From: Oligoflexia bacterium | GTDB lineage: Bacteria; Bdellovibrionota_C; UBA2361; SZUA-149; DAOLCO01 | DNA: 64,000 nucleotides | Assembly: GCA_035327825.1 (NCBI GenBank) | Contig: DAOLCO010000004.1 | Coordinates: 5,950-69,949, forward strand | Direction of reading: 5' to 3' | In this document: positions 4,883 to 44,841 of the stretch, in pieces | Position numbering within the stretch: position 1 is the stretch's first letter | How the letters are laid out: each line of letters opens with the position of its first letter | Notes under the pieces: model-generated | Databases searched by the model: none | What the model was told of the DNA's origin: nothing | What the model saw: only the letters and a program-made list of their open reading frames with translations | Made by a program: the position numbers and the translations under genes

Positions 4883-6034
4883 TCATACCCCATACTTTTT
4901 ACAAAAATCCATAAAAGGAATTATCTTCAGATTATCATCAATTTGCCTTGATTCTTCACCAACATGCACTTGATAAAATTTAGGGATATTTGTTCTCTTT
5001 CTGAAGTAATCAAGATGAGGCGAGAGGTTTAGGGAATCAGAAAATTTTGCTTCAACAGCAAATTCAGGTTTTTTATTTTTAAGAACTACAAAATCAACTT
5101 CTCTTGCGTTTGTGTCACGAATATATCGTAACTCCATCTTATGTCCTTCAGTATCTTCAAGGAAATGGCAATAGGAAAGCAGGTGACTTGCAACAAGATT
5201 TTCAAAACGTATTCCGGGGTTTTCGATTTGTGTCCAGTCCCAAAGATAAATTTTTTGTTCTTTTTTAACTGCCTTTATCTTAGGAGATCCAAATGGTGGA
5301 ACTAGAAATGAATAATATAAAGAACCTAAAATTCCAATCCACCTCTTTGAGGTTTTAAAATCTATTTCAAGGTCATTAGCTATGCTACTCATGGAGAGTG
5401 GAGACCCTACTCTTCTTGGAAGCTCCTCAGCCATTTGTTCTAGTTTATCAAGGTCCTTGACGGTATATAGATCTCTCAAGTCATCTTTTACAAGTCTCCC
5501 GATACGTTGGGTGTGCCACCTTCTGAGGTCTCTCTGATCTTTTGAAGATAACATTTCCGGGAAGCCACCATACTCCAAAAGCAGATCAAGATTATTTCTG
5601 CTATATCCCAGTTCTCCCAATGTATAAGGACCAAGTCTGTAATAGAAATATCTTCCAAGTAGAGAATCTCCTCCCTTTCTGTAATGATCAAGCCTTGCAG
5701 AGCCTGTGATTAAGAATTTATGTGAATGCTTAAGAGTGTCATAGAAGCCTTTAATGAGATTTCTCCATCCCTTTGACTTATGAATTTCATCAAGAACAAT
5801 CAAGTTCTGTTCACTTGGCCATTCTCTATTTCGAATTTTTTTTCTATGTTCAGCAAGATCCCAATTGAGATACCCAGGATGACCATCCGAGTAATTTTCT
5901 ATAAGGGATTGCGCCAGGGTAGTTTTCCCTATCTGTCGAGGACCTCCCAGAAAAACCATTTTCTTTTCAAGGTCTTGGGTAATATACGGTAAAATTTTTC
6001 TTTGTGGTAAAACTGGCATGAGTCTATTATCCAT
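4883..6034 (-). CDS. AAA+ ATPase, DUF4143 family
   Basis: Walker A GGPRQIGKTTLAQ near the N-terminus. Overall layout matches the AAA_14/DUF4143 family. Confidence 0.7.
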   Translation of the reverse strand: MDNRLMPVLPQRKILPYITQDLEKKMVFLGGPRQIGKTTLAQSLIENYSDGHPGYLNWDLAEHRKKIRNREWPSEQNLIVLDEIHKSKGWRNLIKGFYDTLKHSHKFLITGSARLDHYRKGGDSLLGRYFYYRLGPYTLGELGYSRNNLDLLLEYGGFPEMLSSKDQRDLRRWHTQRIGRLVKDDLRDLYTVKDLDKLEQMAEELPRRVGSPLSMSSIANDLEIDFKTSKRWIGILGSLYYSFLVPPFGSPKIKAVKKEQKIYLWDWTQIENPGIRFENLVASHLLSYCHFLEDTEGHKMELRYIRDTNAREVDFVVLKNKKPEFAVEAKFSDSLNLSPHLDYFRKRTNIPKFYQVHVGEESRQIDDNLKIIPFMDFCKKYGV

Positions 6035-6292: not shown

Positions 6293-8545
6293 CTACTTTA
6301 ACAAACCAGGTACGACAAATTGAGGCAAGGTGTTGGTGTTTCTTTTAAGCCTGGTTGTTGTACCGAATATAAGGGCATTTCCTGTTGGCGTGACCCTGAC
6401 TGTTCCATAAGAATTTGCTATCGTACCAAATAATCCAAAATCATGAAGATTAACTTCCTTACTTTCAAACGGTGCAAATGACATGGTTCCACTTGCTCCG
6501 GAGCTTGATTGTGAAGCTATGAGAATGTTTGCTGATCCAGAAAGGGCAGCTGTATTATGTAATCTTAATCTACTTTCCATTGACAGAAAAAGGTTATAAC
6601 TGCCATTTAAAATACTACTTCCGGACGTTACCTCCTGAGTTCCACTGATTGAAGATATTGAACCAGAGACAGGATCTCTGAAATAAAACATTGATTGAGA
6701 AGCAAGGGGAGTTCCACCAGTCGGAGTTATGCTTCCAAATCCAATACTTCCAGCGGGCAGTATTTGAGATGTATTTAAATGAAACTGAGAGTATGGATTA
6801 AGCCCAATAGTCTGATTACTTAGTAAGTTACCAGATTCACTGAAAATCTGAACCTGGGCAGAATTTCCCTGACTTGAGGGATTTACAAGTTCAATCCAGT
6901 TCTGATGTGTGTCCCTGTCTCCAACAGGAAAATAATGAGTCCCATTAAGACCTTTGGTTGCTACCAAAGGAAAGGCAAAGTTAAATGCAGTTCCTCCAGT
7001 TTTATAACCATAGCGAACCAGTTGGGCACTGTATTTTGCATTGATATCTACGGGAACTATTTCAAGAAGTCCAACATTACCTGGTCCAGGACTTACATGT
7101 CCACCATCTATATCTGCCCGATTTCTGCTGGCAAGAGAAATATTTGTTTCAGATAAAAGTACACCTGACTGATTATACTTTTTTACAAGAAATGATTTAG
7201 TGCCAGTATCGAGATTAACAACTGAAAGCCAGTTAGCAACAAGATTTGATGTTTCCCCAGGGTTAAAACTTGGCTGAAATGTATTAAAGCTCACTGAGCT
7301 TTTGTTGGTTATTGGAGGAGCAAATGGTAATGCATATGCAAAGTCAAAATCAGTAAAGCTGCCACTGACTTTAGGTTTATAATAACTGATTCGTCCGCTA
7401 ACATTACTCGATATTTGAACCACACCATAGGAGTCTGTACTGTATCCACTTAATTGATTTAGAATAACATCAAACTGCTGTCCAGCAGGAACTGAAAATG
7501 AATTGGTTGAGACATGAGTCCCTGCAGCATTAAAGAGATTCACTTTTGCTGTTACTGCACTTCCACTAGTATTTTGAATCTCAGCAATATTTACTAAACC
7601 AATAAAACCATTCCATAAACCATAATCACCATCTGTCTCACTTAAAGGCTCACTTGGCGTAACTGAAACAGGAGGCGGAGGATTGCCCGATACTGGGCTG
7701 CTGGATGTCGGAGTGTACTCGTTAATCCAGCTAAGATAATGCGGGACTCTGGCCCAGACACCAAATTTATTTGGAAGGGCGCATCCTTCTCCAAAACTTG
7801 TAGCGCCAATCAGAAGTGGTGCATTAGTTCCACCAATAACCAGTGGCCCTCCGCTATCTCCCTGACAGGCATCCTTTCCTCCTCCCTGAACCCCAGCACA
7901 TACCATTCCGGCAGTAATTGAATTACCATACATGGTATTACATGCGTTATTTGTAATTACCTGCAAATCAACCTGAAGAAGTAGTGGAGATGAAGAACCA
8001 CCTGAACTTGTAGTTCCCCATCCGATAGCTGTGCTTACAAGTCCTGCAAGTTCTGATGAGGGATCAGCTATACCAATAATTGTTCCTGTGTTTGATGGAG
8101 ATGCGAGCTCAAGAAGAGCAATATCATTGTTACTTGTGTTTTCATTATATTGAGGATGGGGGATAATCCTTTTAACATTGATTGTTTCCCCGCCATTTTG
8201 CCTGAGATCATGAAGTCCTATTCCTACTTCCATACTTTGAGGGGTCTCTTCAGCTATGCAGTGCGCTGCAGTTACAACCCACGTGGTTGCAATTAGGGAA
8301 CCTCCGCAAAACTGGCGATTAAATTTATTACCGCTACCTTTACTAAAAAGCCCAACCATAAAAGGCCATGAACCAGGACTAGCTTCAATCCCGCCAACAA
8401 TTCTTGGACGAATTACATCATCAGGATTTGATGCATAAGAATCTGTTCTAAGTTGAATGAAGGAAAGATTAACTAAAAAGAGAAAGATATAAACAGGTTT
8501 GAATAATTTATGTGTCATAAACCTTGATACTCCAGGTTTTTTCAA
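6293..8545 (-). CDS. secreted trypsin-like (S1 family) serine protease with long C-terminal extension
   Basis: Signal peptide, IVGG start, catalytic triad contexts (TAAHC, DIALLEL, GDSGGPL). A Pro-rich linker is followed by a ~450-aa S/T/G/N-rich region. Confidence 0.8.
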   Translation of the reverse strand: MKKPGVSRFMTHKLFKPVYIFLFLVNLSFIQLRTDSYASNPDDVIRPRIVGGIEASPGSWPFMVGLFSKGSGNKFNRQFCGGSLIATTWVVTAAHCIAEETPQSMEVGIGLHDLRQNGGETINVKRIIPHPQYNENTSNNDIALLELASPSNTGTIIGIADPSSELAGLVSTAIGWGTTSSGGSSSPLLLQVDLQVITNNACNTMYGNSITAGMVCAGVQGGGKDACQGDSGGPLVIGGTNAPLLIGATSFGEGCALPNKFGVWARVPHYLSWINEYTPTSSSPVSGNPPPPVSVTPSEPLSETDGDYGLWNGFIGLVNIAEIQNTSGSAVTAKVNLFNAAGTHVSTNSFSVPAGQQFDVILNQLSGYSTDSYGVVQISSNVSGRISYYKPKVSGSFTDFDFAYALPFAPPITNKSSVSFNTFQPSFNPGETSNLVANWLSVVNLDTGTKSFLVKKYNQSGVLLSETNISLASRNRADIDGGHVSPGPGNVGLLEIVPVDINAKYSAQLVRYGYKTGGTAFNFAFPLVATKGLNGTHYFPVGDRDTHQNWIELVNPSSQGNSAQVQIFSESGNLLSNQTIGLNPYSQFHLNTSQILPAGSIGFGSITPTGGTPLASQSMFYFRDPVSGSISSISGTQEVTSGSSILNGSYNLFLSMESRLRLHNTAALSGSANILIASQSSSGASGTMSFAPFESKEVNLHDFGLFGTIANSYGTVRVTPTGNALIFGTTTRLKRNTNTLPQFVVPGLLK

Positions 8546-14174: not shown

Positions 14175-15761
14175 ATGGGCAAAGTTAAAAAACAAGCTTC
14201 TTCACCTAAGTCGCCAAAATCACAGGCTAAAGCATTAAAGCCACAAAAAAAGGGTTCTAAAGCTTCTAAGGGTTTAAAATTAAAAAATAAAAAGCCTGAA
14301 AAATCTGTTTCCTCAAGAACAAGTGCTAAAAAGAAAGCTGTTTCTAAAAGTAATAATTCCAAAAAGGGTATTTCCAGCAAAAAGACCAAGGTTGCAGTAT
14401 CTTCCAGCCTAAAAAAGGGGGAGAAACAAAAGTCTGCCGTGAAGTCTACAGTTAAGCCTGCTAGTAATCCTGCTGGGAAGTCTAAAGTAAAATCTGCATT
14501 TGCCTCTGTTGGGAATTATAAGGATAAAAAGATTAATGCCAAGAAAGATCTTAAATCCCAATCATCAAAGTCTACCAAATCTCTCTCGACAGCTTCAAGT
14601 GTAAAGAGTTCAGTTAAATCTGAAAATTCAAAATCAAATAAATCTTCTATTAAAAAGACTGGTAGCCTTGGTGTAAGTAGTGTAGACTTCAGCACCTTCA
14701 AAGGAAGGGGTTCATCCACTCGTAAAGAAGCAGTTGGTGGACAGTTAACCGTTTCGGGAAATAAAGATAATATTATGCCTTTAAAGTCATCTGCTGATAA
14801 CAAATCTGATTCTTCAGAGGTAAATAACAAGCCTTTACTTTTATCAGCTAATGATGGGGCTCCTGCTGATGAGCCGATAAAGAGAAAACGGGGCAGACCT
14901 AGAAAGACCGATTCCTCTGGATCATCTGCTAATAAACTACAGGAAACAAAAGGAGTTCGGCGATTTGGTATGAACTATGGTAGGCCTGGTGTTGCCGCAG
15001 GCAGATACTCCTGGAGTGCAGAAACAGGAACTTCCCTTGTAGACAAACCAGCCAGTGAGAATAATTCATTACGCGGCAGTTCAAAATCGGAAATATCTTC
15101 TGATAACATTTATTCTTCAAACGGACGCTTTGAAACAAATGGCAAGTCTGCAACTGGTACTATTAATGGTCATTCAAGCAGAAGCAGAAAGGGCCTTAGC
15201 TCACAAATCACTGTTAGTAATAATTATAGTGATGAGGGTCTTGCAAATGGAGATTCTTCCGACGAAATCCCGATGATTGAGTTTATACAAGGCGATAAGG
15301 TGGTGTATCCGGCACATGGGTTGGGTAAAATAGATGCCGTACAGGTTCGAAATGTTGGTGGTACCCAGCAAAAATTTTATATGATTGTTATTGTTGAAAC
15401 TGGTATGAAGATAATGGTACCAGTAAGTCAGGCAAGAACAGTTGGTCTTAGGCGAGTTGTTGACACTGGTACTGTTGACAAAGTCTATGATATTCTTCGT
15501 GACAAGAATGTGGCCATAGACAATCAGACCTGGAATAGGAGATACAGGGAATATTCCCAGAAAATCAAAACAGGTTCGGTACTTGAAATTGCATCTGTTA
15601 TCAGGGATTTAACAGTACTAAAGATAGAGAAAGAACTTTCCTTTAATGAAAGACGTATGCTTGATACTGCTCAGGGTCTTTTAGTGAAAGAGCTTTCAAT
15701 AGCTAAATCAAGCTCTGAGGACAGCATAAAGGAAGAACTTGAGTTAATCTGTCAGCCTTGA
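14175..15761 (+). CDS. CarD/CdnL-family RNA-polymerase-interacting regulator with N-terminal histone-H1-like K/S-rich tail and an AT-hook
   Basis: C-terminal ~170 aa carries the CarD_CdnL_TRCF signature (FIQGDKVVYPAHGLGKIDAV...). N-terminal ~350 aa is K/S/A-rich low complexity with KRKRGRPRKT at ~14877-14906. Confidence 0.75.
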   Translation: MGKVKKQASSPKSPKSQAKALKPQKKGSKASKGLKLKNKKPEKSVSSRTSAKKKAVSKSNNSKKGISSKKTKVAVSSSLKKGEKQKSAVKSTVKPASNPAGKSKVKSAFASVGNYKDKKINAKKDLKSQSSKSTKSLSTASSVKSSVKSENSKSNKSSIKKTGSLGVSSVDFSTFKGRGSSTRKEAVGGQLTVSGNKDNIMPLKSSADNKSDSSEVNNKPLLLSANDGAPADEPIKRKRGRPRKTDSSGSSANKLQETKGVRRFGMNYGRPGVAAGRYSWSAETGTSLVDKPASENNSLRGSSKSEISSDNIYSSNGRFETNGKSATGTINGHSSRSRKGLSSQITVSNNYSDEGLANGDSSDEIPMIEFIQGDKVVYPAHGLGKIDAVQVRNVGGTQQKFYMIVIVETGMKIMVPVSQARTVGLRRVVDTGTVDKVYDILRDKNVAIDNQTWNRRYREYSQKIKTGSVLEIASVIRDLTVLKIEKELSFNERRMLDTAQGLLVKELSIAKSSSEDSIKEELELICQP

Positions 15762-16628: not shown

Positions 16629-16674
16629 TTAAAAACCCACTCCACCGATAATATGAATCAGGATCAGGGTTAAT

Positions 16675-17031
16675 TTAACCTTGATCCGGACTGTTTTCGT
16701 CGCTGGTATTTTCGCTCATATTCTGAGAATAAAGTTTGTTATACCGATCTTCTGAAAGAAATACATCAAAAGGAATAGCAGAGGCTGCCGCTCCAAAGTT
16801 ATTTTTGATTTCTTCCAGCTTTTTCTCAGACAAATTGCCTTTTCCGCGCCTTAGTTCGGACGCATAACAAGGAGAAATTCCAAACTCTTTTGCGATAAAG
16901 GCATCGAGAATACCTTCTTTGGTTGGCACTCTGTATCCGGGCTTCTTAAATCTGAAAATACCACGAAAACATAGCAGTCTTCGTTCTTTATGCAATTCAC
17001 TTGAAGGTGGAGCTCTCTTTTTCTTACTCAT
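16675..17031 (-). CDS. small basic hypothetical protein, possible HTH DNA-binding
   Basis: Likely start at MSKKKR; the ORF track extends to 17085. ILDAFIAKEFGISPCYASELRRGKG looks helix-turn-helix-like. No family recognised. Confidence 0.35.
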   Translation of the reverse strand: MSKKKRAPPSSELHKERRLLCFRGIFRFKKPGYRVPTKEGILDAFIAKEFGISPCYASELRRGKGNLSEKKLEEIKNNFGAAASAIPFDVFLSEDRYNKLYSQNMSENTSDENSPDQG

Positions 17032-17161
17032 TATAAAATACCTAAAAAAACCATGGAACTCTTTCCATCCATACTTTTCACTCAAAAAAAGTCAAAATTA
17101 TGTATTAAAAAGAAACAGGTGACATCCCTTTCACCTTTGAAAAACATTTAGACACAAATTC

Positions 17162-17887
17162 CTACATTTTGGAAAGTAATCTCTTTACATGACTAAGACG
17201 TAACTCGAGATTGGTCAGTTCCTGTCGTAGTATTGAGACTTTTTCGCTAATATCTGAAATATCAACTTCCTTAATCTCAGGTGCAGCAAGAACCACTTTT
17301 GCCAGTCCAGGCAGTTTTTCTTTCAGCTCATCTGGTAAAGGTATTGAGTCATTATGCGAACTTCCAAGTAACTGAAAGAAAATTGCCCAAAGCTCAATTA
17401 ATGAAAACTCGGCAGCTCCTGATAAAGAAAGATCAGAAAGCCAGAGATTTTCTCCTTCACTTCGAATAAATGCGTTCTTTCCAACAAGGATACCATCTGG
17501 TGACGTTTCAAATGGTGGATCAAAGATACTTTTTGATGGCGTAATTTCCTTAACAAACTCAGAATGAAGAAGAGTTCTTGCAGCTTGTATCAGGAATTTA
17601 TTTGTCATGTTCTGAAACGGAAGCCAGTATCCTGGAGCAAGCTCTCCTTGAAGACCCGGAATGTTACATGTTTTGAATGCATCAAATTCATGCCGAGCGG
17701 ATTGAAGCAAAAGAAAAAGCTCATTTGGATTTAGTCGCAGGGGATCATTCTCATCGTAAGCAAATTCAAGGTCTTCATAAGAGTCTCCTTGAATTATAGA
17801 TTCCACGATTTTGTATCCTGAACTTTTACTCTGAACAAGTGCAAGAGCCCGATCATCGTCTAAGTCGACAAATGAAATTGGAGTCAT
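17162..17887 (-). CDS. hypothetical protein (island gene E)
   Basis: Clean 241-aa ORF with no recognisable motifs. A hairpin (17951-17987) separates it from the upstream GHKL gene. Confidence 0.5.
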   Translation of the reverse strand: MTPISFVDLDDDRALALVQSKSSGYKIVESIIQGDSYEDLEFAYDENDPLRLNPNELFLLLQSARHEFDAFKTCNIPGLQGELAPGYWLPFQNMTNKFLIQAARTLLHSEFVKEITPSKSIFDPPFETSPDGILVGKNAFIRSEGENLWLSDLSLSGAAEFSLIELWAIFFQLLGSSHNDSIPLPDELKEKLPGLAKVVLAAPEIKEVDISDISEKVSILRQELTNLELRLSHVKRLLSKM

Positions 17888-17940
17888 TAAAAACCTCCTT
17901 TATAACCAAAATTAAGTAGATGTCACGAAATTTTAGTCCT

Positions 17941-17987
17941 TATATAAAAGGGCGAGATGCGGTTAATATCTAAAACCTCATCTCGCC
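17941..17987 (-). terminator. hairpin (GGCGAGATG / CATCTCGCC, 19-nt loop) followed by CUUUUAUAUA on the minus strand
   Basis: 9-bp perfect inverted repeat 75 bp downstream of the GHKL ATPase stop. The loop is large, so only moderate confidence as an intrinsic terminator. Confidence 0.4.
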
Positions 17988-18025
17988 GGGAAAATCTCCC
18001 AAGAACTAAGAATAGGGACGTGAGA

Positions 18026-19576
18026 CTATTGACCCTTCTTTTTCTTGTTCCTGTGCAAAGTAATCTGCCGTTGTGTCGGAAGCTTGATCCGCCCGTGAGT
18101 GAACCAAAGTAGCACCGAAGGATGCTCTATACAGTTTACAAGGATTGGGAGAGGAGGGAACTCGCCATCGTGGAGAGCTCCGTATCTGCTGATCTGGCTT
18201 AGTACCTCGATAGCGAGAAGAGCCTTTGCTAGTTCTCTCTTTTCATTGCTTCTTCCGCATTCTTCGAAGATAGTTTTCACTGGTCCATATGATTCATTAA
18301 TTGTAATCAATCGAGGATTAGCAACAATAGGATCATTCTCCTGACCGTCTCGCTGGAAAACAATCTTGGGCGGAGTCTTTGTTTTTCTTCCAGTACCAGG
18401 AGGATTTTTAGGGGGCTTTTTACCACCTTTACCTCCACCTTTTCCACCTCGATGTCCATCGTCTTCGTCGTCGTCACCCTCTTCGGAGGTTTTTTTTCGA
18501 CCACCGCCAAGGGTCAGTTCAAACTCGTCAATTAAATAATCGAGCAAGTCCTGATGAATGACGTCGTCAACATGCATTGCATTGTATGCATCCAGAAATT
18601 CATGAAGAGATTCAGGCAGATCTTCTGCAACGATCTCTGAAGCCACGGTATCATCGAAACCGGTTATCTTACTCCTGAATATATCGAATTTAAAGCCTTT
18701 AACAGCCTCAATAATGAGGATTACCTCAGACTGACCGCAGTAGATTCCCGCGGTGTTGACCTTGGCAATTCCACCTCTGTGACTATCCCACCACTCTACA
18801 CACTCTCCATCGGCAGCAAAGCTAAAAGGTGGTGCACTCCATGGACTTACGAGTTCACTTTGCCTTCGGCTTGCCTTTTGAGGACGAATCCCCCAATGAA
18901 GATTAAAAGCTGGACAGGTCGTAGTGCCTTTATAGGCTTTGGTCCCGTTGACCTCGCAAAGAGCTTTGAGAGAGCCAAGGGCACCTACGATCCGAATCTC
19001 TGAACTTCTATCAACGGCGGTAACAACAACCTCGCCAGGAATTGAGAGGTAACGTTGATTCAGAAACTCAATTATCTTCGTTATGCTAAAATTAGCACTC
19101 TTAAGGTGAACTGAAGTGCCTGAGCGCTTATCGAGGGAATCACGTGGAATTGAAACAAATTTTCCAACTCCGTGCTCCGTATCGGGAAGACCCTCAAAGT
19201 GCGTACCATCATCTGTAGCTTTCAGGATGATCTGATAAGCCTGATTATTTTCAGGCGACCTTTGGCAGTGGCTTGTGAATACTGCAGGACCACAAAGGGC
19301 ACTTGCAATCTTGGAGCCGATTCCCATTCTTTGGGCTGCTCCTCTTCCCAATTTACTGGAGCTAGATCCAAGTCCAGTCAGATAAAGGCGCATTTCCTTT
19401 GGAGTCATTCCTTTTCCATTGTCCCGAATCAGGATACCGCCAGATGGGTGTTCTTCAATCCGAACACATGTTGCACCACCGTCGATGGCATTTTGTACCA
19501 TCTCTCGGATTGCAATTAGCGGGTCAATGTCTTCGGGAAGAAGAAATGCCGCAGAAACCAGGTTAAGCTTAGCCAT
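18026..19576 (-). CDS. GHKL/Bergerat-fold ATPase (HATPase_c_3; MORC/Hsp90/MutL-like) with disordered G/K/D-rich linker
   Basis: N-terminal motifs EMVQNAIDGGAT (N-box), IRDNGKGMT (G1) and MGIGSKIAS (G2). C-terminal GGGRKKTSEEGDDDEDDGHRGGKGGGKGGKKPPKNPPGTGRKTK linker. Possibly GC-elevated: ~41-51% in four hand-counted 100-nt windows. Confidence 0.75.
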   Translation of the reverse strand: MAKLNLVSAAFLLPEDIDPLIAIREMVQNAIDGGATCVRIEEHPSGGILIRDNGKGMTPKEMRLYLTGLGSSSSKLGRGAAQRMGIGSKIASALCGPAVFTSHCQRSPENNQAYQIILKATDDGTHFEGLPDTEHGVGKFVSIPRDSLDKRSGTSVHLKSANFSITKIIEFLNQRYLSIPGEVVVTAVDRSSEIRIVGALGSLKALCEVNGTKAYKGTTTCPAFNLHWGIRPQKASRRQSELVSPWSAPPFSFAADGECVEWWDSHRGGIAKVNTAGIYCGQSEVILIIEAVKGFKFDIFRSKITGFDDTVASEIVAEDLPESLHEFLDAYNAMHVDDVIHQDLLDYLIDEFELTLGGGRKKTSEEGDDDEDDGHRGGKGGGKGGKKPPKNPPGTGRKTKTPPKIVFQRDGQENDPIVANPRLITINESYGPVKTIFEECGRSNEKRELAKALLAIEVLSQISRYGALHDGEFPPLPILVNCIEHPSVLLWFTHGRIKLPTQRQITLHRNKKKKGQ

Positions 19577-19589
19577 TTAAGGCCTCCAT

Positions 19590-19698
19590 ATTTAAAAACA
19601 GGAAAAAACGCTTTTTAACCGCAACTCGCGGACACTTGATTTTTAGCTGATGATTTATAGAAAAAAGGTAAACACCAAGTGTCCGCGCAAAAGTTGCG
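19590..19698 (-). terminator. imperfect inverted repeat plus U-run, then GGAGG RBS for the GHKL gene
   Basis: GCAACTCGCGGACACTTG (19621-19638) pairs with CAAGTGTCCGCG...AGTTGC (19676-19697). On the minus strand it is followed by GCGUUUUUUCCUGUUUUU, with GGAGG 9 nt upstream of ATG 19576. Confidence 0.35.
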
Positions 19699-19831
19699 CG
19701 AATCTACCCTGTAAATAAGAGAAAGAGCGATTATGATTACGTTTTGTGATAAGCCGAAAAAGCATATCATAAAACGTAGCGTGTGGAAAACCCACCCGCT
19801 ACTTCGGTAAAGTAGCAAAAACCTAAATAAA

Positions 19832-20758
19832 CTAAGGAGTGGCAGGAGGAGAAAGATTCTGTTCTCTTGCCTTTAGCTCATTAGCCCAGCTTTGAAGTCG
19901 CTGTTGTCTTTTTTCTAGAAGGCCAAGGTGAAGAGTGATTTCTTCCTGATCCGGAGCAATACCTAAAGGACTTGATCTTGCTTTTGCTAGTTCAATTTCA
20001 AGAGCCTTATTTCGTTCTCGAAGCTCTTCAAGCTCTTGAAGAAGGGCAAGGACTCCTTCCTGATATTCGTTCTCAGATTTTCTGAGAGTTTCAATCAATG
20101 AGTTAATTTCCTCCGTGTTAAAAGAAGAAGTAACTGGTATAGGTTGAGCCGATTCTTCTTCTAATAACAAAGAAGGTTCTTCACGATTCAGGATAACGGG
20201 ATCAGGTATTCGAACTCCATCAATATCCCAGCAATCTAGATCATGAACAGGTAGCTGAGGGACCTGATAAATCCCCATTATAGGATCAGAAAAGAGGCGA
20301 ACTGCAAGTTCACACCAAAGATCAAACGATGCGTCAACAGTCCTTCCCTTACTACTTGTAAATTTGAAGTTTCCGGACTTGTGTCTAACGGTTATATGAC
20401 CAATCACAAGGGATTTTTCAGAACTACCAATGTCTTCCCAGGGATTCATTTTTTTCGAGATATCAATGCCCTGCCTTTTTAATTTTCGTAGAGCCTCCTC
20501 GAAATTCCTGATAACCTTCTCCTTGGAGCTGTTACCTGGATTAAAGAGATACTCATTGGTAGCAACAAGCTGATCAGGGACAAGTTTGTTATGATAGTTA
20601 AACCAAAGAACAAAATTGCACCAGCGTGCAAGAATCCTGATGTTCATTACAACATCTCTTGAAAATGTAGGATTCACTTCCCGAAAGACCCATGAGTTAT
20701 CAGATTCCTGCCTTTTGAAATGAAATCCGTTAATGGTCACATGCTCTTTTTGAGTCAT
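19832..20758 (-). CDS. hypothetical protein with C-terminal coiled coil (island gene C)
   Basis: 308-aa ORF. The C-terminal ~80 aa is heptad-like (LQELEELRERNKALEIELAKA). No known family recognised. Confidence 0.5.
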   Translation of the reverse strand: MTQKEHVTINGFHFKRQESDNSWVFREVNPTFSRDVVMNIRILARWCNFVLWFNYHNKLVPDQLVATNEYLFNPGNSSKEKVIRNFEEALRKLKRQGIDISKKMNPWEDIGSSEKSLVIGHITVRHKSGNFKFTSSKGRTVDASFDLWCELAVRLFSDPIMGIYQVPQLPVHDLDCWDIDGVRIPDPVILNREEPSLLLEEESAQPIPVTSSFNTEEINSLIETLRKSENEYQEGVLALLQELEELRERNKALEIELAKARSSPLGIAPDQEEITLHLGLLEKRQQRLQSWANELKAREQNLSPPATP

Positions 20759-20968
20759 TTTTTCTCCTTTATAGGTTAAAACCCTTTTTAATTTTCCACA
20801 CGCACATTTTGATTTGCAATTTTAAAAAGATAAAATCAAAATATGCGTATATTCGCTCTTCTACTCAAAGTAATAATTTTGCTGCAGATTCAGCCAGTTT
20901 ATATAAAACTGGGCGATTGAATTTTGTAATAAAACCGCCCAATGTATGTGAAAATTAACGAGTAGCTC

Positions 20969-22078
20969 CTAAGCTCGAATTATTTCCTCAAGTACTCTGA
21001 AACTTTGGTCTTTGAGATGAGGGAATACTGTTCCTTCCATAAAGATTTTAAGAAGTTCCATTGGCTCCAGTTGCCGGGAAGGACTTGCAACTTTTTCGAT
21101 TGACTTATGGACAGGAGTTTTTTCCTGTTTAAAGCTGACCAAGTCGCTATCCATGATTTGATTAAATGAAAGGATTGGATCTTCAATTTCGTTTGATCCA
21201 ATAATGACCAAAAGAATAAAGCCAAATTGCGAAGGTTCAAGGTTGTCCGAAATTAGAAATTTGCCTTCTGATGCAATGAAAGTATCATCATTTTCAGATT
21301 GCTCACTTCTTAGCTCATCTACAAAACCATGAGGCGTGATGTCAAAGGGAGTCTCAAGTGTTTCTTCGATTCGTAGAATGAGAAGTTTCCTCTTAATTAA
21401 CAGTGTATCATCTTTCGTGAAGAGAATATCCAGAGGGATTTGAAAATCAAAGAGTTCCAAAAGTTCTTCTGGCAACACTTCTCGAAAATCCGAATGACCC
21501 TGGTCTTTCAATTTTGAAAGTATATACTCACGAAGTTCCACCAGAGAACCGAATTCTAGCAGTTCTCCGCTCTTATCTTGTGCCAGTGATTGCTTTTCTG
21601 AAGGCTCACCATAGACCAGAGCAACTGACGAGGGATCAAAGAAGTAATTTTTACCCCTTATAATTTCTCCTGAGAGAACAACCAGGGCGACGTTTATCCA
21701 GTCAGTCCATGGAGCTGATCGAGATAAAATCTTCCATGGAAGTGAGGTAGATTCACGTTCAATAGTTACTATTCCGGAACTAACCTTTAGAAGAGTTCCT
21801 GAATTCACTTGATCTGTTCCAGATCTGAATTGAGCAAGATATTTTGCCTTTTTTAGAAATCGGCTCTCTAGTAACTTTTTAAAAAGAGTTAAAAGATCTT
21901 TGTGAGATAAGTGGTAAGTAGTATGTCCTGCGACTTCATGATAATCCATTCTCCCCCAATCTCGTCTAACAGTTCGAGACTGATACTCGTAAAACATTGA
22001 GTGATCATCATCGGATGTCTTAGGTCCTAGGATGACCTGGATGTGAGGGAGCTTGACTCCTCGTGGAGCTATGCGCAT
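20969..22078 (-). CDS. hypothetical protein (island gene B)
   Basis: 369-aa ORF with acidic stretches. No recognisable catalytic motif. Confidence 0.5.
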   Translation of the reverse strand: MRIAPRGVKLPHIQVILGPKTSDDDHSMFYEYQSRTVRRDWGRMDYHEVAGHTTYHLSHKDLLTLFKKLLESRFLKKAKYLAQFRSGTDQVNSGTLLKVSSGIVTIERESTSLPWKILSRSAPWTDWINVALVVLSGEIIRGKNYFFDPSSVALVYGEPSEKQSLAQDKSGELLEFGSLVELREYILSKLKDQGHSDFREVLPEELLELFDFQIPLDILFTKDDTLLIKRKLLILRIEETLETPFDITPHGFVDELRSEQSENDDTFIASEGKFLISDNLEPSQFGFILLVIIGSNEIEDPILSFNQIMDSDLVSFKQEKTPVHKSIEKVASPSRQLEPMELLKIFMEGTVFPHLKDQSFRVLEEIIRA

Positions 22079-22216
22079 TTTTAAATCCTTTCTTAAAAAT
22101 ATTATTCAATCACCCGTGATAAAAAAGGGTGCTTGAATCTGCAGCATCTACTCTTTATAATTTCAAAGATCAGCTAGTTTTTGTGAAAGGATGCATTTAA
22201 ACCTTTTTACTGATGC

Positions 22217-22262
22217 CAGACTCGGGGACTTGACGAATTGTCTGGTCCCCGAGTTGGCTTTT
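22217..22262. terminator. strong GC-rich hairpin (ACTCGGGGAC / GTCCCCGAGT, 10 bp) followed by TGGCTTTTT on the plus strand
   Basis: Perfect 10-bp inverted repeat with a 15-nt loop, between island genes A and B. The T-run is on the plus strand while the flanking genes are on the minus strand. Confidence 0.45.
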
Positions 22263-22279
22263 TACGAGCAGCGAAATTC

Positions 22280-23230
22280 TTAAACAGTTTTTCTCTCGTT
22301 TCTTATCTGATGAACTCTCTTTCGGAAATTATTGGCATAAAGGCGTTTTCTTCCCGCCTTGCTTTTTTCCTGAAAATCCCTTAGTTCATCCCAAAGCTCT
22401 TTAAGGGTCATTCCATTATCTCCGACTTTACCGTGCTCATTTTTTGTCCTTCTTTCAATGTCTCGGAGCACATCTTCAACATCGGAAAGCTCAGTGCATT
22501 GTCGGATTGAAGCCAGAATTCTGGAGAAGCTTACACCATCAGAGTAGTATCCACCTTGACCTCTCTCTTCCAGAACTTCTTTGGTTTCTAGTGAAAGTTT
22601 GGGCACTCCCCTGGAAATGAGAATTTGATCAATACAGTGAGCAAGATGAGATGCTCCCCCAGCTCGTTCCATTAATTCGGTAACAAGCTTTAGCTCCTTG
22701 TCAATATCATTTGACATCTCACCAACCAGTGCTTTTAGTTCATCAAGTTCAAGCCGTTCTTTTGAAATTTCTTCTCGTTTCTGTTGAAGTTCAGCCTGAA
22801 TTTCCGAACGTTCTTTTAGAAGTTCAGAAAGTTCAGCTTTTAAAGTCTGAATCTGTTCTGCAAGCTTATTAACTTCAGCACGCTTTTGAACAATATCCCC
22901 ATCAATTTTTTGTTCCTGAGGGCTTGTTTCAATTTTTGGTTCCTGTGATGAACCGATTGGCAAAGTTTCGACAAATGAGCGAATCATATCCATGCATTCT
23001 GGCATGATACGACCCTTCAATTCCAGCTGTAACTTTTCGCGAAGAACGGATTCCATCTTCTCCGCAGAGAAACGTTCTGGAACCCTCGCTTCATGCTGTT
23101 GAAGAAGAGCAGAACGAAGATTTGCTAAAGTCTGCGCTTCAAATGAAGATACACTTTTGCACCATGTTTTTACCTCAGGTTGAGACAGGAGCCATACCAC
23201 CGATCCTAATACTTCCGGATTTTTTGTCAT
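22280..23230 (-). CDS. hypothetical coiled-coil protein (island gene A)
   Basis: Long central coiled coil (QKRAEVNKLAEQIQTLKAELSELLKERSEIQAELQQKREEISKERLELDELKAL). Likely start at MTKNPEVL; the ORF track extends to 23290. Confidence 0.5.
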   Translation of the reverse strand: MTKNPEVLGSVVWLLSQPEVKTWCKSVSSFEAQTLANLRSALLQQHEARVPERFSAEKMESVLREKLQLELKGRIMPECMDMIRSFVETLPIGSSQEPKIETSPQEQKIDGDIVQKRAEVNKLAEQIQTLKAELSELLKERSEIQAELQQKREEISKERLELDELKALVGEMSNDIDKELKLVTELMERAGGASHLAHCIDQILISRGVPKLSLETKEVLEERGQGGYYSDGVSFSRILASIRQCTELSDVEDVLRDIERRTKNEHGKVGDNGMTLKELWDELRDFQEKSKAGRKRLYANNFRKRVHQIRNERKTV

Positions 23231-23276
23231 TATATATCCTTTTTGTAAAAACCTATCCATTAAAACCAAAATGCAT

Positions 23277-23327
23277 CCTGCTCCAAACAAGAAAGTAGTA
23301 AATACTACTTTCCACTTTTGAAGCAGG
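23277..23327. promoter_or_regulatory. palindromic operator-like site upstream of island gene A, in the divergent promoter region shared with the sensor kinase
   Basis: Perfect 9-bp arms GAAAGTAGT-AAAT-ACTACTTTC (23291-23312). They are nested in an imperfect outer repeat CCTGCTCCAAA...TTTGAAGCAGG. An AT-rich ~280-bp intergenic region follows. Confidence 0.4.
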
Positions 23328-23605
23328 TCTGATCCTTGTCCCGGATTACTATGTTAAAGAGATAGTCCTGAAAAAGTAGGTATAATAATACGCATACTTT
23401 TAAAGGTGAAATGAGCTAGTTTACTATCATATTAGTGGGAAAAATCAAGATTTGGATAAATCTTAAGATATATATAATAATAGTATAGTAATTATAAGTA
23501 GTTATAGCGTCACTATAGGCTAATGAGTTAAGAAACTTGAGTATTTATCCTAATAGCATTAGCTCTAATATTGAGCTAATATTTTGAATTAATACAAATC
23601 TTTAA

Positions 23606-39478: not shown

Positions 39479-40267
39479 TTATCTTCTGAAATTTTCGGGA
39501 AGATCAAGCCACTCTTTAAATGAAATTCCAGTTTTTTTATTGGCTTCCACAAAATCCCACAAAATTTTATCGATAGTATTATCATCATTTATAAGACTCT
39601 TAAATCTTCGTTCCTGATAAAAAAAACCGAATTTGGGAGATAGTTGCTTAGATGCTTCTTCAATACTAATCCCATAACGTAAATGAAGAAGAAGTGCGGT
39701 AACAATTCCACTTCTATGAGTCCCACTGGTGCAATGTACAAGTACAGGACCATTAATCTCCTCTGCGATCTTGATCAAGCGCTTAAAAGCTTTCTTCTGT
39801 CTTGTGTTGCTACCATTGAGGGGAAGCCAGATATATCTTGAACCATTTTTTTTAACTAGAGCTTTTTCTGAAGATTCACCTTCTTCCCGATCACCGCCAA
39901 GCCTAAGGTCAATGACATTCTTGATGCCATAAAGCACTAATTTTTCCTCTAAAACCTTATTGGATAATTTCGCACTTCGATAAAGTTCGCCAGGACGAAC
40001 TTCATGAAAATTATCCGATGATACCATGTGAGCCAAGGCAGAAGTAAATGAGGTTTGATCAGAAACAATCTGAAAAGCAAATCCTGATATTAAAATCAAA
40101 AAAAAGATAATTAAGATTGTCAAAATACCTGAATATAAACGAGAAATTAATTTTATTGATCTCATAAGGACCTCAAATTTTCTTTTTAATGATTTCCATA
40201 TGATTTTATGACTAAACTTGTTCAATTGGGAATAGTAAAAAATTAAGCTACCTTTTTTTTGCTTCAA
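39479..40267 (-). CDS. membrane-anchored protein tyrosine/dual-specificity phosphatase
   Basis: CX5R P-loop VHCTSGTHRSG; N-terminal TM helix ILTILIIFFLILISGFAF. Confidence 0.75.
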   Translation of the reverse strand: MKQKKGSLIFYYSQLNKFSHKIIWKSLKRKFEVLMRSIKLISRLYSGILTILIIFFLILISGFAFQIVSDQTSFTSALAHMVSSDNFHEVRPGELYRSAKLSNKVLEEKLVLYGIKNVIDLRLGGDREEGESSEKALVKKNGSRYIWLPLNGSNTRQKKAFKRLIKIAEEINGPVLVHCTSGTHRSGIVTALLLHLRYGISIEEASKQLSPKFGFFYQERRFKSLINDDNTIDKILWDFVEANKKTGISFKEWLDLPENFRR

Positions 40268-40892
40268 AAATGCGAAGGGGAGGGATATTTCTCATTTCTA
40301 TGTTTGATCTTGTTATGGAAAAATACTCCAAAAGCTTGTTTTTTATATCTTGCTGACCAATTGAAAGAGAAATTAGAAACTGATAAACAAGAAAGGCTCC
40401 ATTATCCGAAAGCACACTAAGTGTTCCTTTTAGTATGGTATCTTTTAAAGTGGGAGGGAACATCGAAAATGGAATACCAGAAACTATATAATCTGCCCTA
40501 TTTGATTCAATTAACTGCTCTGAATATAATTTTTCAATATGAAAAACTACGTCAGCTGCTGAACCCTCAATAACAATCAGACGTTCATCCTTGATTTCTT
40601 CTGCAAGCGCTCTTGCAAAATCAGGGTTATTTTCAATTGCTACAAGCCGGGAATTTACAGGAAGCTGACTTAGTACATATTTAGTAATAACCCCACCACC
40701 AGGACCAAACTCGATGAATAACCCGCACCTGGATAAATCAATTCCACTAAATATTCTTTTAATTCCAAAAACTGAGGTAGGAGCAATTGATGCAACTTCA
40801 GGATCTCTTATAATATTTGAAATATATGACAAAACAGAATCTTGAGTACCTGTTTTGATGTCAAACTTCTCTTTCATAGTCCTAGCTTCCAT
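40248..40892 (-). CDS. class I SAM-dependent methyltransferase (rRNA adenine dimethylase-like fold)
   Basis: GLFIEFGPGGGVIT glycine-rich SAM motif. Overlaps the phosphatase gene by 20 nt. Confidence 0.55.
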   Translation of the reverse strand: MEARTMKEKFDIKTGTQDSVLSYISNIIRDPEVASIAPTSVFGIKRIFSGIDLSRCGLFIEFGPGGGVITKYVLSQLPVNSRLVAIENNPDFARALAEEIKDERLIVIEGSAADVVFHIEKLYSEQLIESNRADYIVSGIPFSMFPPTLKDTILKGTLSVLSDNGAFLVYQFLISLSIGQQDIKNKLLEYFSITRSNIEMRNIPPLRIFEAKKR

Positions 40893-43167: not shown

Positions 43168-44841
43168 CTACTGTTTAAGACAATGGGTCTTCATGCATAA
43201 TGAATGAGTACCAAGTCTTCTGCCATCCTGAAATAATCCAAGCATTGGATAAGGTTTGGATTTAATGCTCCACGGGCTGACTGGACTCATTCCCGACCCT
43301 TTTTTTCTCATTGAAAGGGTGTATTTTTTCCCTGCGGATTGAAGTTGAGGATCGAAATCAACTTTTACCCACTGATTGTTTTTAATCAATGAACTGTTTA
43401 ATGATTTTTTTGCAACAACTCGTAAACCAGAATGAAAATCAGACTCACCTGTATATTCAGATAGATTAATCTCAATTTCACCATCCGTCTCATGACCATG
43501 AGTTCCAAAAAGTAATTCAATTTCCTTAAGTCCGTTTATTCGGCAAATGAAGTGCTGTTCCAGGGTGCTATTAATACCAAAAGCAAAATCACAAGACTCT
43601 GCAATGTCAATTGAAATATCAATCTCCCTATTAGAACTTATAACAGGAGTATCAAGAATATTGATAATTTGATTTGCCGCTTTCTTGCGGTCAAAAAGCT
43701 CTTTTGCTAGTAATAAGGCATTTTTTGATTTTGTAACTACCAATAACGGATCGTTGAAAATTTCTTCTATCACTTCTCTAAAAGCACGTTCATCCCCTGG
43801 AGCTATGCACCATCCAGCGTTAAATTTCTTTATTGAATCCGCAAGATCTGCATAATTATTATAAATTATCGGAATACCAGCCCATAAGTAAGTTGTTGTC
43901 CTAATTGTAATTGCAAGTTCCCTTTCTAAATTCCAGCTCATTAAATCAAGAGCGACATCTGCATTTGGAAGTAACTCCACAAACTTCTCAAGGGGCAGAA
44001 GTGGCAATCGTTTCACACGAGGATTTTGCTCAAGTGAATAAAACAGTTCGTCATACTTTCCCGTATTAATATCATAGTTAGGATGTTTACCTCCTATCAG
44101 TGTCAAAGTACCCAGATTGCGATTTTTTAGTTCATTTGAAAGATTCTCCAGACCCCAGGTTGGATCCTGCCACGGAAGAAAAACTCCACCAAAAATAAAT
44201 GAAGGACTGAAAAGACCGGAACTGCTACTGTTGCTATCAATTGATAGAGTTTTTGATCCAGATATTCTTTCAATTCTATTCTTTGTATTTTGATCTTCAA
44301 TGGGAGGTAGGGGCATTGCTATTGTACATATTCGCTCTTCAGGACGGGAAACTTTCGCGCGCATCAGCCAGGACAAAAAATATAATCTTTGCTTCTGGCC
44401 TGAAACGATAAAATAATCAGCACAGGCTAAAGCATTTAGTTTGCCATGAACAGCTGCATTGTAGTTATCTTCACCCTGAAAATATCTTTCAAGCAGATGT
44501 GGACCTGCAAGATCAATGATTAATGGTTGTCTTGGTTTTCTGCCCAAAGTCCATGCAGGCCAATGTCCACAGAAGATAACATCAGGGTTTGTTTCGGAAA
44601 TTATTTTTGCCTGATTAACAGCATCAAAGGCATAGCGATTTAACTCTTTAAGAATTTCTTTAGATACTTTTTCATTTAACGAAGAATTTATACCATCAAG
44701 AGCTGATAGTGGTACAGAAAATATCACCTCATGTCCAAGATCTCTCAGTCCTTCAGCAATTTGATTTGTCCTTAGAGCTGTCCCCGAAGTAGGATAGCCG
44801 GATAAGGGAGGTAAATCGGTAGCAAATATAAGAATTTTCAT
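43168..44841 (-). CDS. GT4-family glycosyltransferase with ~180-aa C-terminal extension (paralog A)
   Basis: MKILIFATDLPPLSGYPTSGTALRTNQIAEGL N-terminus. A conserved block LMSWNLERELAITIRTTTYLWAGIPIIYNNYADL is shared with the divergent paralog. Confidence 0.7.
   Translation of the reverse strand: MKILIFATDLPPLSGYPTSGTALRTNQIAEGLRDLGHEVIFSVPLSALDGINSSLNEKVSKEILKELNRYAFDAVNQAKIISETNPDVIFCGHWPAWTLGRKPRQPLIIDLAGPHLLERYFQGEDNYNAAVHGKLNALACADYFIVSGQKQRLYFLSWLMRAKVSRPEERICTIAMPLPPIEDQNTKNRIERISGSKTLSIDSNSSSSGLFSPSFIFGGVFLPWQDPTWGLENLSNELKNRNLGTLTLIGGKHPNYDINTGKYDELFYSLEQNPRVKRLPLLPLEKFVELLPNADVALDLMSWNLERELAITIRTTTYLWAGIPIIYNNYADLADSIKKFNAGWCIAPGDERAFREVIEEIFNDPLLVVTKSKNALLLAKELFDRKKAANQIINILDTPVISSNREIDISIDIAESCDFAFGINSTLEQHFICRINGLKEIELLFGTHGHETDGEIEINLSEYTGESDFHSGLRVVAKKSLNSSLIKNNQWVKVDFDPQLQSAGKKYTLSMRKKGSGMSPVSPWSIKSKPYPMLGLFQDGRRLGTHSLCMKTHCLKQ

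Follow-up and report, generated by a model that had tools for sequence, protein, structure and literature searches.

Does a run of six genes, only one of which can be assigned to a protein family, form a functional unit, and if so, of what kind and from what source? The question is raised by a minus-strand block (16675-23230) in the MAG of an uncultured member of the Oligoflexia, a relative of Bdellovibrio, where it lies between ispD and a gene for a GAF sensor kinase. The window referred to throughout is the whole 64,000-nucleotide stretch of DNA that was analysed. Our preferred reading, in which we place about even confidence, is that the block is a copy of a rare and undescribed paraMORC-like cassette that was laterally acquired and acts on DNA in genetic conflict.

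A six-gene block among housekeeping genes

The six minus-strand ORFs that a preliminary description of this DNA had reported are all present at 16675-23230:

16675-17085, minus strand: gene A, longest ORF; the gene-caller start gives 16675-17031, 118 aa
17162-17887, minus strand: gene B, 241 aa
18026-19576, minus strand: gene C, the GHKL ATPase gene, 516 aa
19832-20758, minus strand: gene D, 308 aa
20969-22078, minus strand: gene E, 369 aa
22280 to 23230, 23269 or 23290, minus strand: gene F, 316, 329 or 336 aa depending on which of the alternative starts is used

Both flanks are easily annotated, with L35, L20, PheS, PheT, an acetyltransferase, CarD and IspD on one side and the GAF histidine kinase, FlgM, a methyltransferase and a GT4 glycosyltransferase on the other. 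Five of the six block genes have no Pfam match, as against about three of some 35 genes elsewhere in the window. The impression that only the 516-aa GHKL protein could be assigned to a family proved accurate: gene C matches HATPase_c_3 (1.6e-10, residues 21-98), and the other five proteins, compared with Pfam, NCBIfam, PADLOC and PHROGs, gave no family and only coiled-coil noise. The two long coiled coils noted from the sequence were located in D (residues 215-302) and in the centre of F (residues ~105-210), and B adds a short C-terminal one; F also ends in a basic tail. The host lineage is itself isolated. Its IspD is without a close relative among 185,579 GTDB species representatives, and the IspD and PheT genes examined fall into 90%-identity clusters of one or two members, all from this species.

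A GHL ATPase of a rare family

Gene C gave 73 HMMER matches in a full scan of 1.84 billion cluster representatives, and about 25-30 of its relatives are full length, with identities of 20-31%. This GHKL family is known from metagenomes only, and its only named hosts are one Oligoflexia and one Bdellovibrionales MAG. Residues E25, N29, D52, G56, G85, G87 and T154, which make up the Bergerat motifs (N-box ExxxN, G1 DxGxG, G2 GxG, and GT), are invariant in 25 out of 25 family members; gene C thus has a Bergerat-fold ATP-binding domain in which all ATP-binding motifs are intact. A transducer residue, R301, is likewise invariant across the aligned family and would touch the gamma-phosphate.

The AF2 model of gene C (pLDDT 81.7) consists, over residues ~1-350, of a GHKL domain followed by an S5-fold transducer. 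Foldseek aligned the model over 350-420 columns to two-domain GHL modules, with 250-296 residues matched (MORC3, SMCHD1, MutL, ParE, TRAP1); the closest structures were MORC3, SMCHD1 and MutL, and the best match was MORC3. With both the ATP-binding domain and the S5 transducer found, gene C belongs to the GHL (GHKL plus S5 transducer) ATPase superfamily. Beyond the transducer lies a disordered linker (residues 358-399) that is basic and rich in G, K and P, and a basic G/K/P/R linker together with basic tails is kept family-wide. The C-terminal domain (residues 404-515) is beta-plus-helical and has no known relatives; its profile found no match in the PDB.

Recurrence of the ATPase with similar partners

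The preliminary description had proposed asking whether homologues of the GHKL gene co-occur with homologues of its neighbours, and the same kinds of partner do recur. In eight other loci, all metagenomic (L011-L015 and L019-L021), the GHKL gene stands with Pfam-less partners, namely one or two genes of a family that we call X upstream and/or, directly downstream, a Y gene or one for a fused X/Y-like protein. Four of the eight (L011, L013, L014 and L015) also carry a gene for an A-like protein. The X-GHKL-Y(-A) order and strand are kept across distant loci, and the partners' positions are equivalent between the window and the other loci. X and Y proteins have in common an L(S/R)D...Y.PWL motif in beta-meander-plus-helix modules, and X ends in a coiled coil. 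The surroundings differ at every locus, and the cassette occupies unrelated chromosomal sites. Flagellar genes and genes for tRNA synthetases, SRP54, Mfd, Mla and GyrB are among its neighbours, and no contig carries more than one copy. L017, a distant family member, has phage-like surroundings and shares an overlapping operon with an SF-II helicase gene. Because the ATPase co-occurs with X, Y and A-like partners in eight other loci, and gene A of the window is an A-like member, the evidence supports reading the block as a module whose genes are linked in function, rather than as orphans that came together by chance.

How far the window's own partners can be recognized as homologues of those elsewhere varies from gene to gene. 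The expectation held for A (E 1.3e-7) and, weakly, for D (E 0.004); for B, E and F, homology to the partner proteins of other loci was not demonstrable, and the agreement is one of position only. Gene A was recovered by a profile of six A-like proteins (hmmsearch E 1.3e-7; hhalign 88.6% probability, E 2.6e-6) and by single A-like proteins (phmmer E 4e-5 to 2e-3), and these similarities place it in the A-like family seen beside the GHKL gene at other loci. Its weak PDB profile matches (E 0.16-1.5) are nearly all Cro/C1/controller helix-turn-helix proteins, and it matches PADLOC HTH_VI at 0.021, suggesting that this basic 118-aa protein is probably of the XRE helix-turn-helix type.

Gene D has an N-terminal domain of two beta-meander-plus-helix modules ahead of its C-terminal coiled coil, according to an AF2 model made from a single sequence (pLDDT 47), which can be read for secondary structure only. 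Its match to the X family is weak (hhalign E 0.004) and is colinear over D residues 23-173, and in a MAFFT alignment with that family the motif is kept, with D158, Y164 and P167 invariant; D is thus a probable, divergent member of the X family. When an HMM of the X/Y motif was run over 230 window ORFs, D ranked first (E 0.26), E third (E 0.63) and F sixth, all with E values of at least 0.26. The non-significant match in E sits at residues ~121-149, and E is possibly a second X-like paralogue, by comparison with L021, where a pair of X paralogues precedes the GHKL gene. Gene B lies directly downstream of the GHKL gene, in the slot that the Y family fills in seven other loci, and showed no significant similarity to that family (phmmer E 1.7, hhalign E 0.2). 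For F, a counterpart was sought in the other loci and none was found.

Structured spacers and an inverted repeat

The hairpins described between the genes were found again, with slightly adjusted limits in two cases (19627-19687 and 22220-22254), and were joined by others. The elements are as follows:

16661-16687, both directions: hairpin over the stop codon of gene A, facing the ispD end; 12-pair stem then a T-run, terminator-like in both directions
17951-17987, minus strand: C-B spacer hairpin resembling an intrinsic terminator, followed by a U-run; 14-nt arms, 93% complementary; spacer MFE z -5.9
19627-19687, minus strand: long hairpin in the 255-nt D-C spacer, which precedes the GHKL gene; 22-nt arms, 86% complementary; spacer MFE z -5.5
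19738-19778 and 19795-19819: further hairpins in the same 255-nt D-C spacer, with a terminator-like site at 19819-19795
20800-20848, minus strand: hairpin in the 210-nt E-D spacer; 16-nt arms, 94% complementary; spacer MFE z -4.4
~20909-20942: second E-D spacer hairpin, terminator-like
22220-22254, minus strand: hairpin in the 201-nt F-E spacer; 15-nt arms, 87% complementary; spacer MFE z -4.5
23291-23312, no strand assigned: inverted repeat GAAAGTAGTA-AA-TACTACTTTC, located 61 nt before the start codon of F at 23230

Four of the five block spacers fold far better than their shuffles (z -4.4 to -5.9), compared with z -2.2 to +1.0 in other intergenic regions of the window. Strong structure is also a property of the spacers in the other loci (17/17). 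The block hairpins have no sequence in common with one another.

The inverted repeat had been described as a perfect 22-bp palindrome. It is present at 23291-23312, and its 10-nt arms are perfect; the AA at its centre is non-palindromic, so there is no perfect 22-mer. It occurs as a single copy in the window, where the chance expectation is 0, and may be an operator (for A?) or a 5'-UTR hairpin.

Composition and signs of acquisition

The elevated GC content claimed for the ATPase gene is real: it stands at 46.6%, with a GC3 of 0.40 against 0.277 +/- 0.033 in 39 other window genes (z +3.7). All six island genes have a GC content of at least 39%, compared with 35-37% in the two flanking genes, and their codon scores deviate most in C (z -5.5), E (-3.8) and A (-3.1), more weakly in B, D and F. 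As in the window, the whole module in L012, L014 and L021 is GC3-rich and contrasts sharply with its flanks, so that a sharp GC3 island is seen in four of seven hosts; in L013, L015 and L020, module and flanks showed no contrast in composition. In the window, the codon usage of the island genes moves in the direction of the ribosomal protein genes (z +1.0 to +2.3), and so expression level, and not foreign origin, could account for part of the contrast in composition. In L012, the gene for ribosomal protein S16 does not have a high GC3, and expression level is thus no explanation of the contrast there. Lateral acquisition, as first suggested, is favoured by the composition together with the non-syntenic locations, and the cassette was probably transferred laterally. 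Every assembly with the flanking genes also has the block and belongs to the same population. In the one that was compared base by base, GCA_035324615.1, the differences from the window over 7.1 kb are four SNPs and a gap of 10 N.

Hallmarks of mobility and defence were sought around the block and its relatives. The nearest tRNA gene is 8 kb from the block, and none was found in nine related loci; no direct repeats above chance flank the block. The gene tables of the loci list no integrase, transposase or defence genes near the cassette, no capsid, terminase or replication genes were seen at it, and the phage, plasmid and viral (IMG/VR) collections held no relatives. We recognized no nuclease, helicase, methylase, TIR or other effector domain in the block, and no SF-II helicase, methylase or nuclease gene beside the GHKL gene in the eight other loci. 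PADLOC-DB v2.0 HMMs, run against the six window proteins and ten X/Y proteins of other loci, gave marginal or coiled-coil matches only, in agreement with the earlier remark that the partner set resembles no named system. The more specific suggestion of a defence system did not fare as well, given no effector, no defence or mobility neighbours, no tRNA or repeat boundary, and no phage, plasmid or viral relatives. A defence role for the cassette is plausible but unsupported.

Proposed action and alternative explanations

If it works as MutL, MORC and SMCHD1 do, the ATPase would dimerise on ATP binding into a clamp, which the basic linker and tails might keep on nucleic acid. The coiled-coil partners X and Y could be adaptors or regulators that load or bridge this clamp, the helix-turn-helix protein may regulate or target the cassette, and the cassette as a whole would restrain or compact foreign DNA rather than cut it. 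What the data show is the family and its fold, the intact ATP-binding motifs, the recurring neighbourhood, the contrast in composition and the structure of the spacers; a clamp on DNA, the roles of the partners and a part in conflict are inferred, and the function is possibly defence or DNA handling. A bolder form of the idea is that of a nuclease-free, MORC-like genome surveillance, a laterally moving counterpart of MORC/SMCHD1 silencing confined to the Bdellovibrionota, in which an adaptor-loaded GHL clamp and an XRE-like factor entrap or compact foreign (or prey) DNA; we regard this as speculative and improbable at present.

The block could instead be a native housekeeping or cell-biology system of the Bdellovibrionota, for example a MORC/SMCHD1-like nucleoid-organising or chromosome-compaction machine with coiled-coil scaffolds, and we think this somewhat unlikely, if a serious contender. 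It would fit the ordinary chromosomal neighbours at every locus, the single copy per contig away from mobility and defence genes, the named hosts, which are Oligoflexia and Bdellovibrionales MAGs only, the lean of the island's codon usage towards ribosomal protein genes, and the structured spacer or terminator that each gene has of its own, suggesting tuned stoichiometry. However, the family is very rare, with 73 matches in 1.84 billion cluster representatives, its chromosomal context differs at every locus, the GC3 island is sharp in four of seven hosts (with an S16 gene in L012 that is not GC3-rich), and the partner proteins show a rapid divergence more typical of conflict genes.

Two further explanations appear weaker. 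Were the block derived from a mobile element such as a prophage, integrative element or integron-like cassette array, as its cargo or as what remains of it, its structured spacers would be recombination or packaging signals, and one would expect, as observed, a composition unlike that of the flanks and genes on one strand with imperfect hairpins between them; the phage-like region around the distant L017, with its SF-II helicase operon, also points this way. Yet integrase, transposase, capsid, terminase and replication genes, tRNA and att-like repeats are all unseen, phage, plasmid and IMG/VR collections gave no match, the hairpins have no common sequence, and the kept X-GHKL-Y(-A) order is not expected of independent integron cassettes, making this a distinctly unlikely account. 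That the genes have no functional link, with a GHKL gene fallen by chance among fast-evolving orphans of a poorly sampled lineage, might be argued from the isolation of the host's IspD among 185,579 representatives, from IspD and PheT clusters that are equally confined to this species, and from the lack of detectable homologues of B, E and F. This reading is already largely refuted by the conserved neighbourhood, in which the GHKL gene stands with A-like, X and Y partners in the same order and strand in eight independent loci; the concentration of Pfam-less genes in the block (5/6 against ~3 of some 35) and the structured spacers common to the loci also speak against it, and we consider it very improbable.

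If the cassette acts on DNA, it would represent a nuclease-independent mode of action in bacteria, for which six genes are a tractable set for testing. In any case three uncharacterised families are defined here, a GHKL subfamily with a private C-terminal domain, the X/Y module and the A-like protein, and an operon architecture is documented that is unusual for the strong structure of its intergenic spacers. Rarity (~70 detectable relatives) and the metagenome-only record limit the immediate reach of these findings.

Comparison with known systems

Among the known systems closest to the cassette are the prokaryotic MORC and paraMORC ATPases of restriction-modification and defence loci. Iyer, Abhiman and Aravind (2008, PMC2292703) describe these ATPases, in every bacterial context, as partners of helicases, methylases or nucleases. 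Like MORC and paraMORC1-5 as defined there, gene C has an N-terminal GHKL domain with all ATP motifs followed by an S5 fold with a conserved basic residue, and the family has its own C-terminal extension and a sporadic distribution suggestive of lateral mobility. It is not MORC in the strict sense: the MORC-specific S5-domain motif GhXhhpXXRhl, taken from PMC2292703 and searched by regular expression, occurs in 0 of 25 family members. Nor is it a restriction-modification-linked system of the MORC/paraMORC kind, as the neighbourhood of SF-II helicase, methylase and/or endonuclease (RE fold, HNH, Vsr) is missing and only the distant L017 has an SF-II helicase. Unlike paraMORC3, 4 and 5, its C-terminal domain has no RE-fold (E-D-ExK), TIR or HxH features, and unlike those of MORC/paraMORC, its partners are a new X/Y superfamily and an XRE-like protein.

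MutL is the best sequence-level match of gene C in both the PDB and NCBIfam, from the N-box to the G1 region, and has the same three-part layout of GHKL plus transducer, long disordered linker and separate C-terminal domain. Identity with MutL was rejected because gene C matches the NCBIfam model over residues 19-66 only and scores 33.8 bits where the cut-off is 180. Neither a MutL_C nor an endonuclease domain was found in gene C, and its linker, unlike that of MutL, is strongly basic. Gene C also resembles VcSduA, a Shedu type I-D protein with GHKL and DUF4263 nuclease domains (PMC12137116), and TmtA (PADLOC model) in having an N-terminal GHKL domain and a clamp-like middle domain thought to control downstream activity. 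The direct match to PADLOC TmtA is marginal (E 0.0018, residues 18-59 only), and in contrast to VcSduA, which is a single protein, there is a multi-gene cassette and no DUF4263 or PD-(D/E)xK domain.

Compared with the eukaryotic chromatin ATPases SMCHD1 and MORC2/3, the cassette is bacterial and is without CW, SMC-hinge or other chromatin-reader domains. Coiled coils are associated with all of them, in the cassette in trans, as parts of separate partner proteins, and the ATP-driven dimerising DNA clamp proposed here is modelled by analogy on these enzymes. Iyer et al. (2008, PMC2292703) argue for an origin of eukaryotic MORC and SMCHD1 in conflict systems of bacteria.

Block, flanks and source

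The six co-oriented genes A-F at 16675-23230 form a genuine and conserved module of several genes, hitherto undescribed, that centres on a MORC-like ATPase, the product of gene C, and this module was probably acquired laterally. All six open reading frames were recovered by ORF calling as the preliminary description had them:

16675-17031, minus strand: gene A, 118 aa (start as chosen by gene callers)
17162-17887, minus strand: gene B, 241 aa
18026-19576, minus strand: gene C, GHKL ATPase, 516 aa
19832-20758, minus strand: gene D, 308 aa
20969-22078, minus strand: gene E, 369 aa
22280-23230, minus strand: gene F, 316 aa (329 or 336 aa with upstream starts)

The same description held that only the ATPase can be assigned to a family, and searches against Pfam, NCBIfam, PADLOC and PHROGs indeed recognise C alone (HATPase_c_3 at 1.6e-10, residues 21-98), returning nothing beyond coiled-coil noise for A, B, D, E and F. 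The flanks consist of ordinary genes, with L35, L20, PheS, PheT, an acetyltransferase, CarD and IspD upstream, and a GAF histidine kinase, FlgM, a methyltransferase and glycosyltransferases downstream. Orphans are not unique to the block, as three further Pfam-less genes lie in the polysaccharide/glycosyltransferase region (43168-44841, 40248-40892 and 51686-52201, all minus strand, encoding 557, 214 and 171 aa), yet they are far sparser there than in the block.

Two other features of the surroundings deserve mention. An AAA_14/DUF4143 ATPase gene (4883-6034, minus strand) lies some 10 kb upstream of the block, next to the gene of a trypsin-domain protein of 741 aa (6293-8545, minus strand). 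The CarD homologue (14175-15761, plus strand; CarD_TRCF_RID and CarD_C domains) carries an N-terminal extension of ~370 aa that is of low complexity, K/S-rich and contains the AT-hook-like motif KRKRGRPRK; the NCBI MAG annotation of this protein covers the 162-aa C-terminal part only. Myxococcus CarD has an HMGA-like domain, which this extension recalls, but in the window protein it is placed N-terminally.

The window sequence comes from a metagenomic contig of 122 kb (ENA ERZ794932 NODE_89), and the same sequence occurs under the label 'Oligoflexia bacterium' in NCBI TPA MAGs, including GCA_035324615.1. Over 7.1 kb the latter departs from the window by four substitutions, all in gene F, and one 10-N gap, and the assemblies carrying the block region represent one population sampled. 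Its GHKL gene is split into two partial proteins (277 and 235 aa), not by a frameshift but by that scaffold gap, which lies within the gene (window equivalent about 18735-18744).

A new family of GHKL ATPases

A word-indexed search with the GHKL protein returned zero homologues, an artefact in which even the query's own cluster was missed, because G/K/D-rich linker words swamped the list of 8000 candidates; such searches are unreliable for any query with G/K/D-rich low-complexity linkers. When 1.84 billion cluster representatives were scanned exhaustively with HMMER, 73 matched at E <= 1e-3, 25 of them at E <= 1e-10, and some 25-30 relatives are full length (490-580 aa, 20-31% identity). A metagenome scan yielded a single match, on a truncated 1.1-kb contig. 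In the family alignment the Bergerat motifs are invariant (E25, N29, D52, G56, G85, G87, T154), as are W228, G277 and R301, the last in the transducer. Every member has the basic, G/K/P/R-rich linker, and both the C-terminal domain and the basic tails are conserved throughout the family. The AF2 model of C (pLDDT 81.7, pTM 0.77) has three parts:

residues about 1-350: GHKL domain and S5-like transducer
residues 358-399: disordered linker
residues 404-515: beta-plus-helical C-terminal domain

In structure it comes closest to the two-domain ATPase modules of GHL proteins such as TRAP1 and ParE. A BFVD fold search gave generic GHKL, topoisomerase and RIIA matches only. Similarity to MutL, Hsp90 and MORC2 at the sequence level is confined to the first 65-130 positions, profile searches detected no relatives of the C-terminal domain, and none of 25 family members has the S5 motif that Iyer et al. 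(PMC2292703) describe as specific to MORC. For these reasons we regard C as a new paraMORC-like family (MORC-related prokaryotic GHKL ATPases) with a MutL-like three-part layout, neither MORC sensu stricto nor MutL.

A conserved cassette in other genomes

Whether the GHKL gene keeps company with particular partners, a point that the preliminary description left for checking, was examined around nine family members at other metagenomic loci (L011-L015, L017, L019-L021), neighbours being grouped by all-against-all phmmer and profile searches. At eight of them (all but L017) the adjacent genes are Pfam-less and on the same strand, and three groups of partners recur beside the GHKL gene. X proteins (350-540 aa; one or two paralogues) are encoded directly upstream and combine an N-terminal globular part with a C-terminal coiled coil. 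Y proteins (190-300 aa) are encoded directly downstream; in L013 and L015 a fused X/Y-like protein (530-555 aa) stands in their place. Small A-like, XRE-like proteins occur in L011, L013, L014 and L015. Common to X and Y is a module, found in 19 instances across these loci, in which a beta-meander precedes a helix with L(S/R)D at its end, followed by Y.PWL. None of the partner proteins of these loci has a Pfam or PADLOC match, and literature searches found no description of the cassette.

An additional Pfam-less family (655-676 aa) accompanies the cassette in L013 (14771-16738) and L015 (6865-8895; phmmer E 3.5e-7), and L014 15485-16087 and L015 6197-6841 show weak mutual similarity. In some hosts the cassette may thus extend to more genes.

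Judged from sequence, secure homology between the window and these loci is limited to A and C. Gene A groups with the A-like family (hmmsearch E 1.3e-7; hhalign 88.6% probability, E 2.6e-6). Its segment GISPCYASELRRGKGNLSEKKLEEI fits the XRE helix-turn-helix pattern, and its weak PDB profile matches are almost all to Cro, C1 or controller proteins; A is thus a probable HTH protein by inference. Gene D is a probable X homologue: it has the same architecture, aligns colinearly with the family (hhalign E 0.004) and keeps motif residues D158, Y164 and P167; its single-sequence AF2 model (pLDDT 47) was too low in confidence for a fold search. An HMM of the X/Y motif ranked D first, E third and F sixth among 230 window ORFs, at non-significant E-values of 0.26 to 1.0. 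Neither profile HMM nor hhalign significantly detected the motif in B, E or F, and the similarity of B to Y was likewise not significant. These three genes are equated with cassette partners by position alone, the window order (two or three unassigned genes, GHKL gene, 200-240-aa gene, small basic protein) following closely that in L020 and L021.

Structured spacers

The hairpins reported between the genes are present, and the palindrome upstream of the first gene is an inverted repeat, though not a perfect 22-mer, since its perfect 10-nt arms surround a 2-nt centre. Cassette spacers of 130-330 nt (window 17032-23605; L011-L021) fold far better than shuffled sequence. Four of the five window spacers have z-scores of -4.4 to -5.9, the stretch preceding F has one of -3.3, and all 17 spacers in the other loci fall between -2.1 and -7.3; nine other intergenic regions of the window gave -2.2 to +1.0. 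Some hairpins resemble intrinsic terminators, and an Rfam search of the block found no RNA family. The hairpins may set the stoichiometry of the components. An integron-like cassette array was considered because hairpins separate co-oriented genes, and was rejected in view of the conserved gene order across loci and the absence of any sequence common to the hairpins.

Probable lateral acquisition

The raised GC of the ATPase gene that the preliminary description had estimated is real (46.6%, compared with about 38% over the whole window), and its GC3 is 0.40 against 0.277 +/- 0.033 in 39 other window genes. All six block genes exceed both flanking genes in GC, and codon usage deviates in C (z -5.5), E (z -3.8) and A (z -3.1). 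The module of L012 is a sharp island in GC and GC3 (0.57-0.60 against 0.45-0.52), as are those of L014 and L021, and every locus has different flanking genes, all of which counts for lateral transfer. Against it, module and flanks show no compositional contrast in L013, L015 and L020, the codon usage of the block moves towards that of the ribosomal protein genes in the window, the cassette has no integrase, transposase, tRNA or flanking repeat near it in any locus examined, and phage, plasmid and IMG/VR collections gave no match to C, B, D, E or F. A genome-contig scan with IspD found a sole match, in Syntrophomonadaceae (34% identical), and GTDB representatives hold no close relative. On balance, acquisition of the cassette by lateral transfer is likely, though not proven.

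Possible function and known systems

The ATP-binding motifs are intact, the GHKL and transducer fold includes an invariant arginine, the linker and tails are basic, the C-terminal domain is private to the family, and the ATPase has conserved neighbours, namely coiled-coil partners of a single superfamily and a probable HTH protein. Analogy with MutL, MORC and SMCHD1 suggests that the ATPase could act as an ATP-driven dimerising clamp on nucleic acid, with X and Y as adaptors or bridges; A would be a regulator or targeting factor, and the inverted repeat at 23291-23312 a candidate operator. The earlier reading of the block as a conflict or defence system stands as regards an undescribed multi-gene module, given the partners conserved at eight loci, and lacks support as regards defence: we found no effector in the block, so nothing speaks for a restriction-like or abortive-infection mechanism. 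A conflict role, should the cassette have one, would more probably lie in restraining or compacting DNA. That the cassette serves defence is speculation. The main competing reading is a function in the nucleoid or in cell biology that is specific to the lineage.

Among known systems, MutL has a three-part layout like that of C. The link to paraMORC loci comes from the ninth locus, L017 (8009-11970), whose surroundings look phage-like (RNA ligase, SNase, HTH genes, many small ORFs). Here the gene of a more distant GHKL protein (P0033, 557 aa) belongs to an operon of overlapping genes, together with those for a 338-aa SF-II helicase (ResIII/Helicase_C) and for a protein of 328 aa without known family, which ties the GHKL family to the classic paraMORC-helicase theme.
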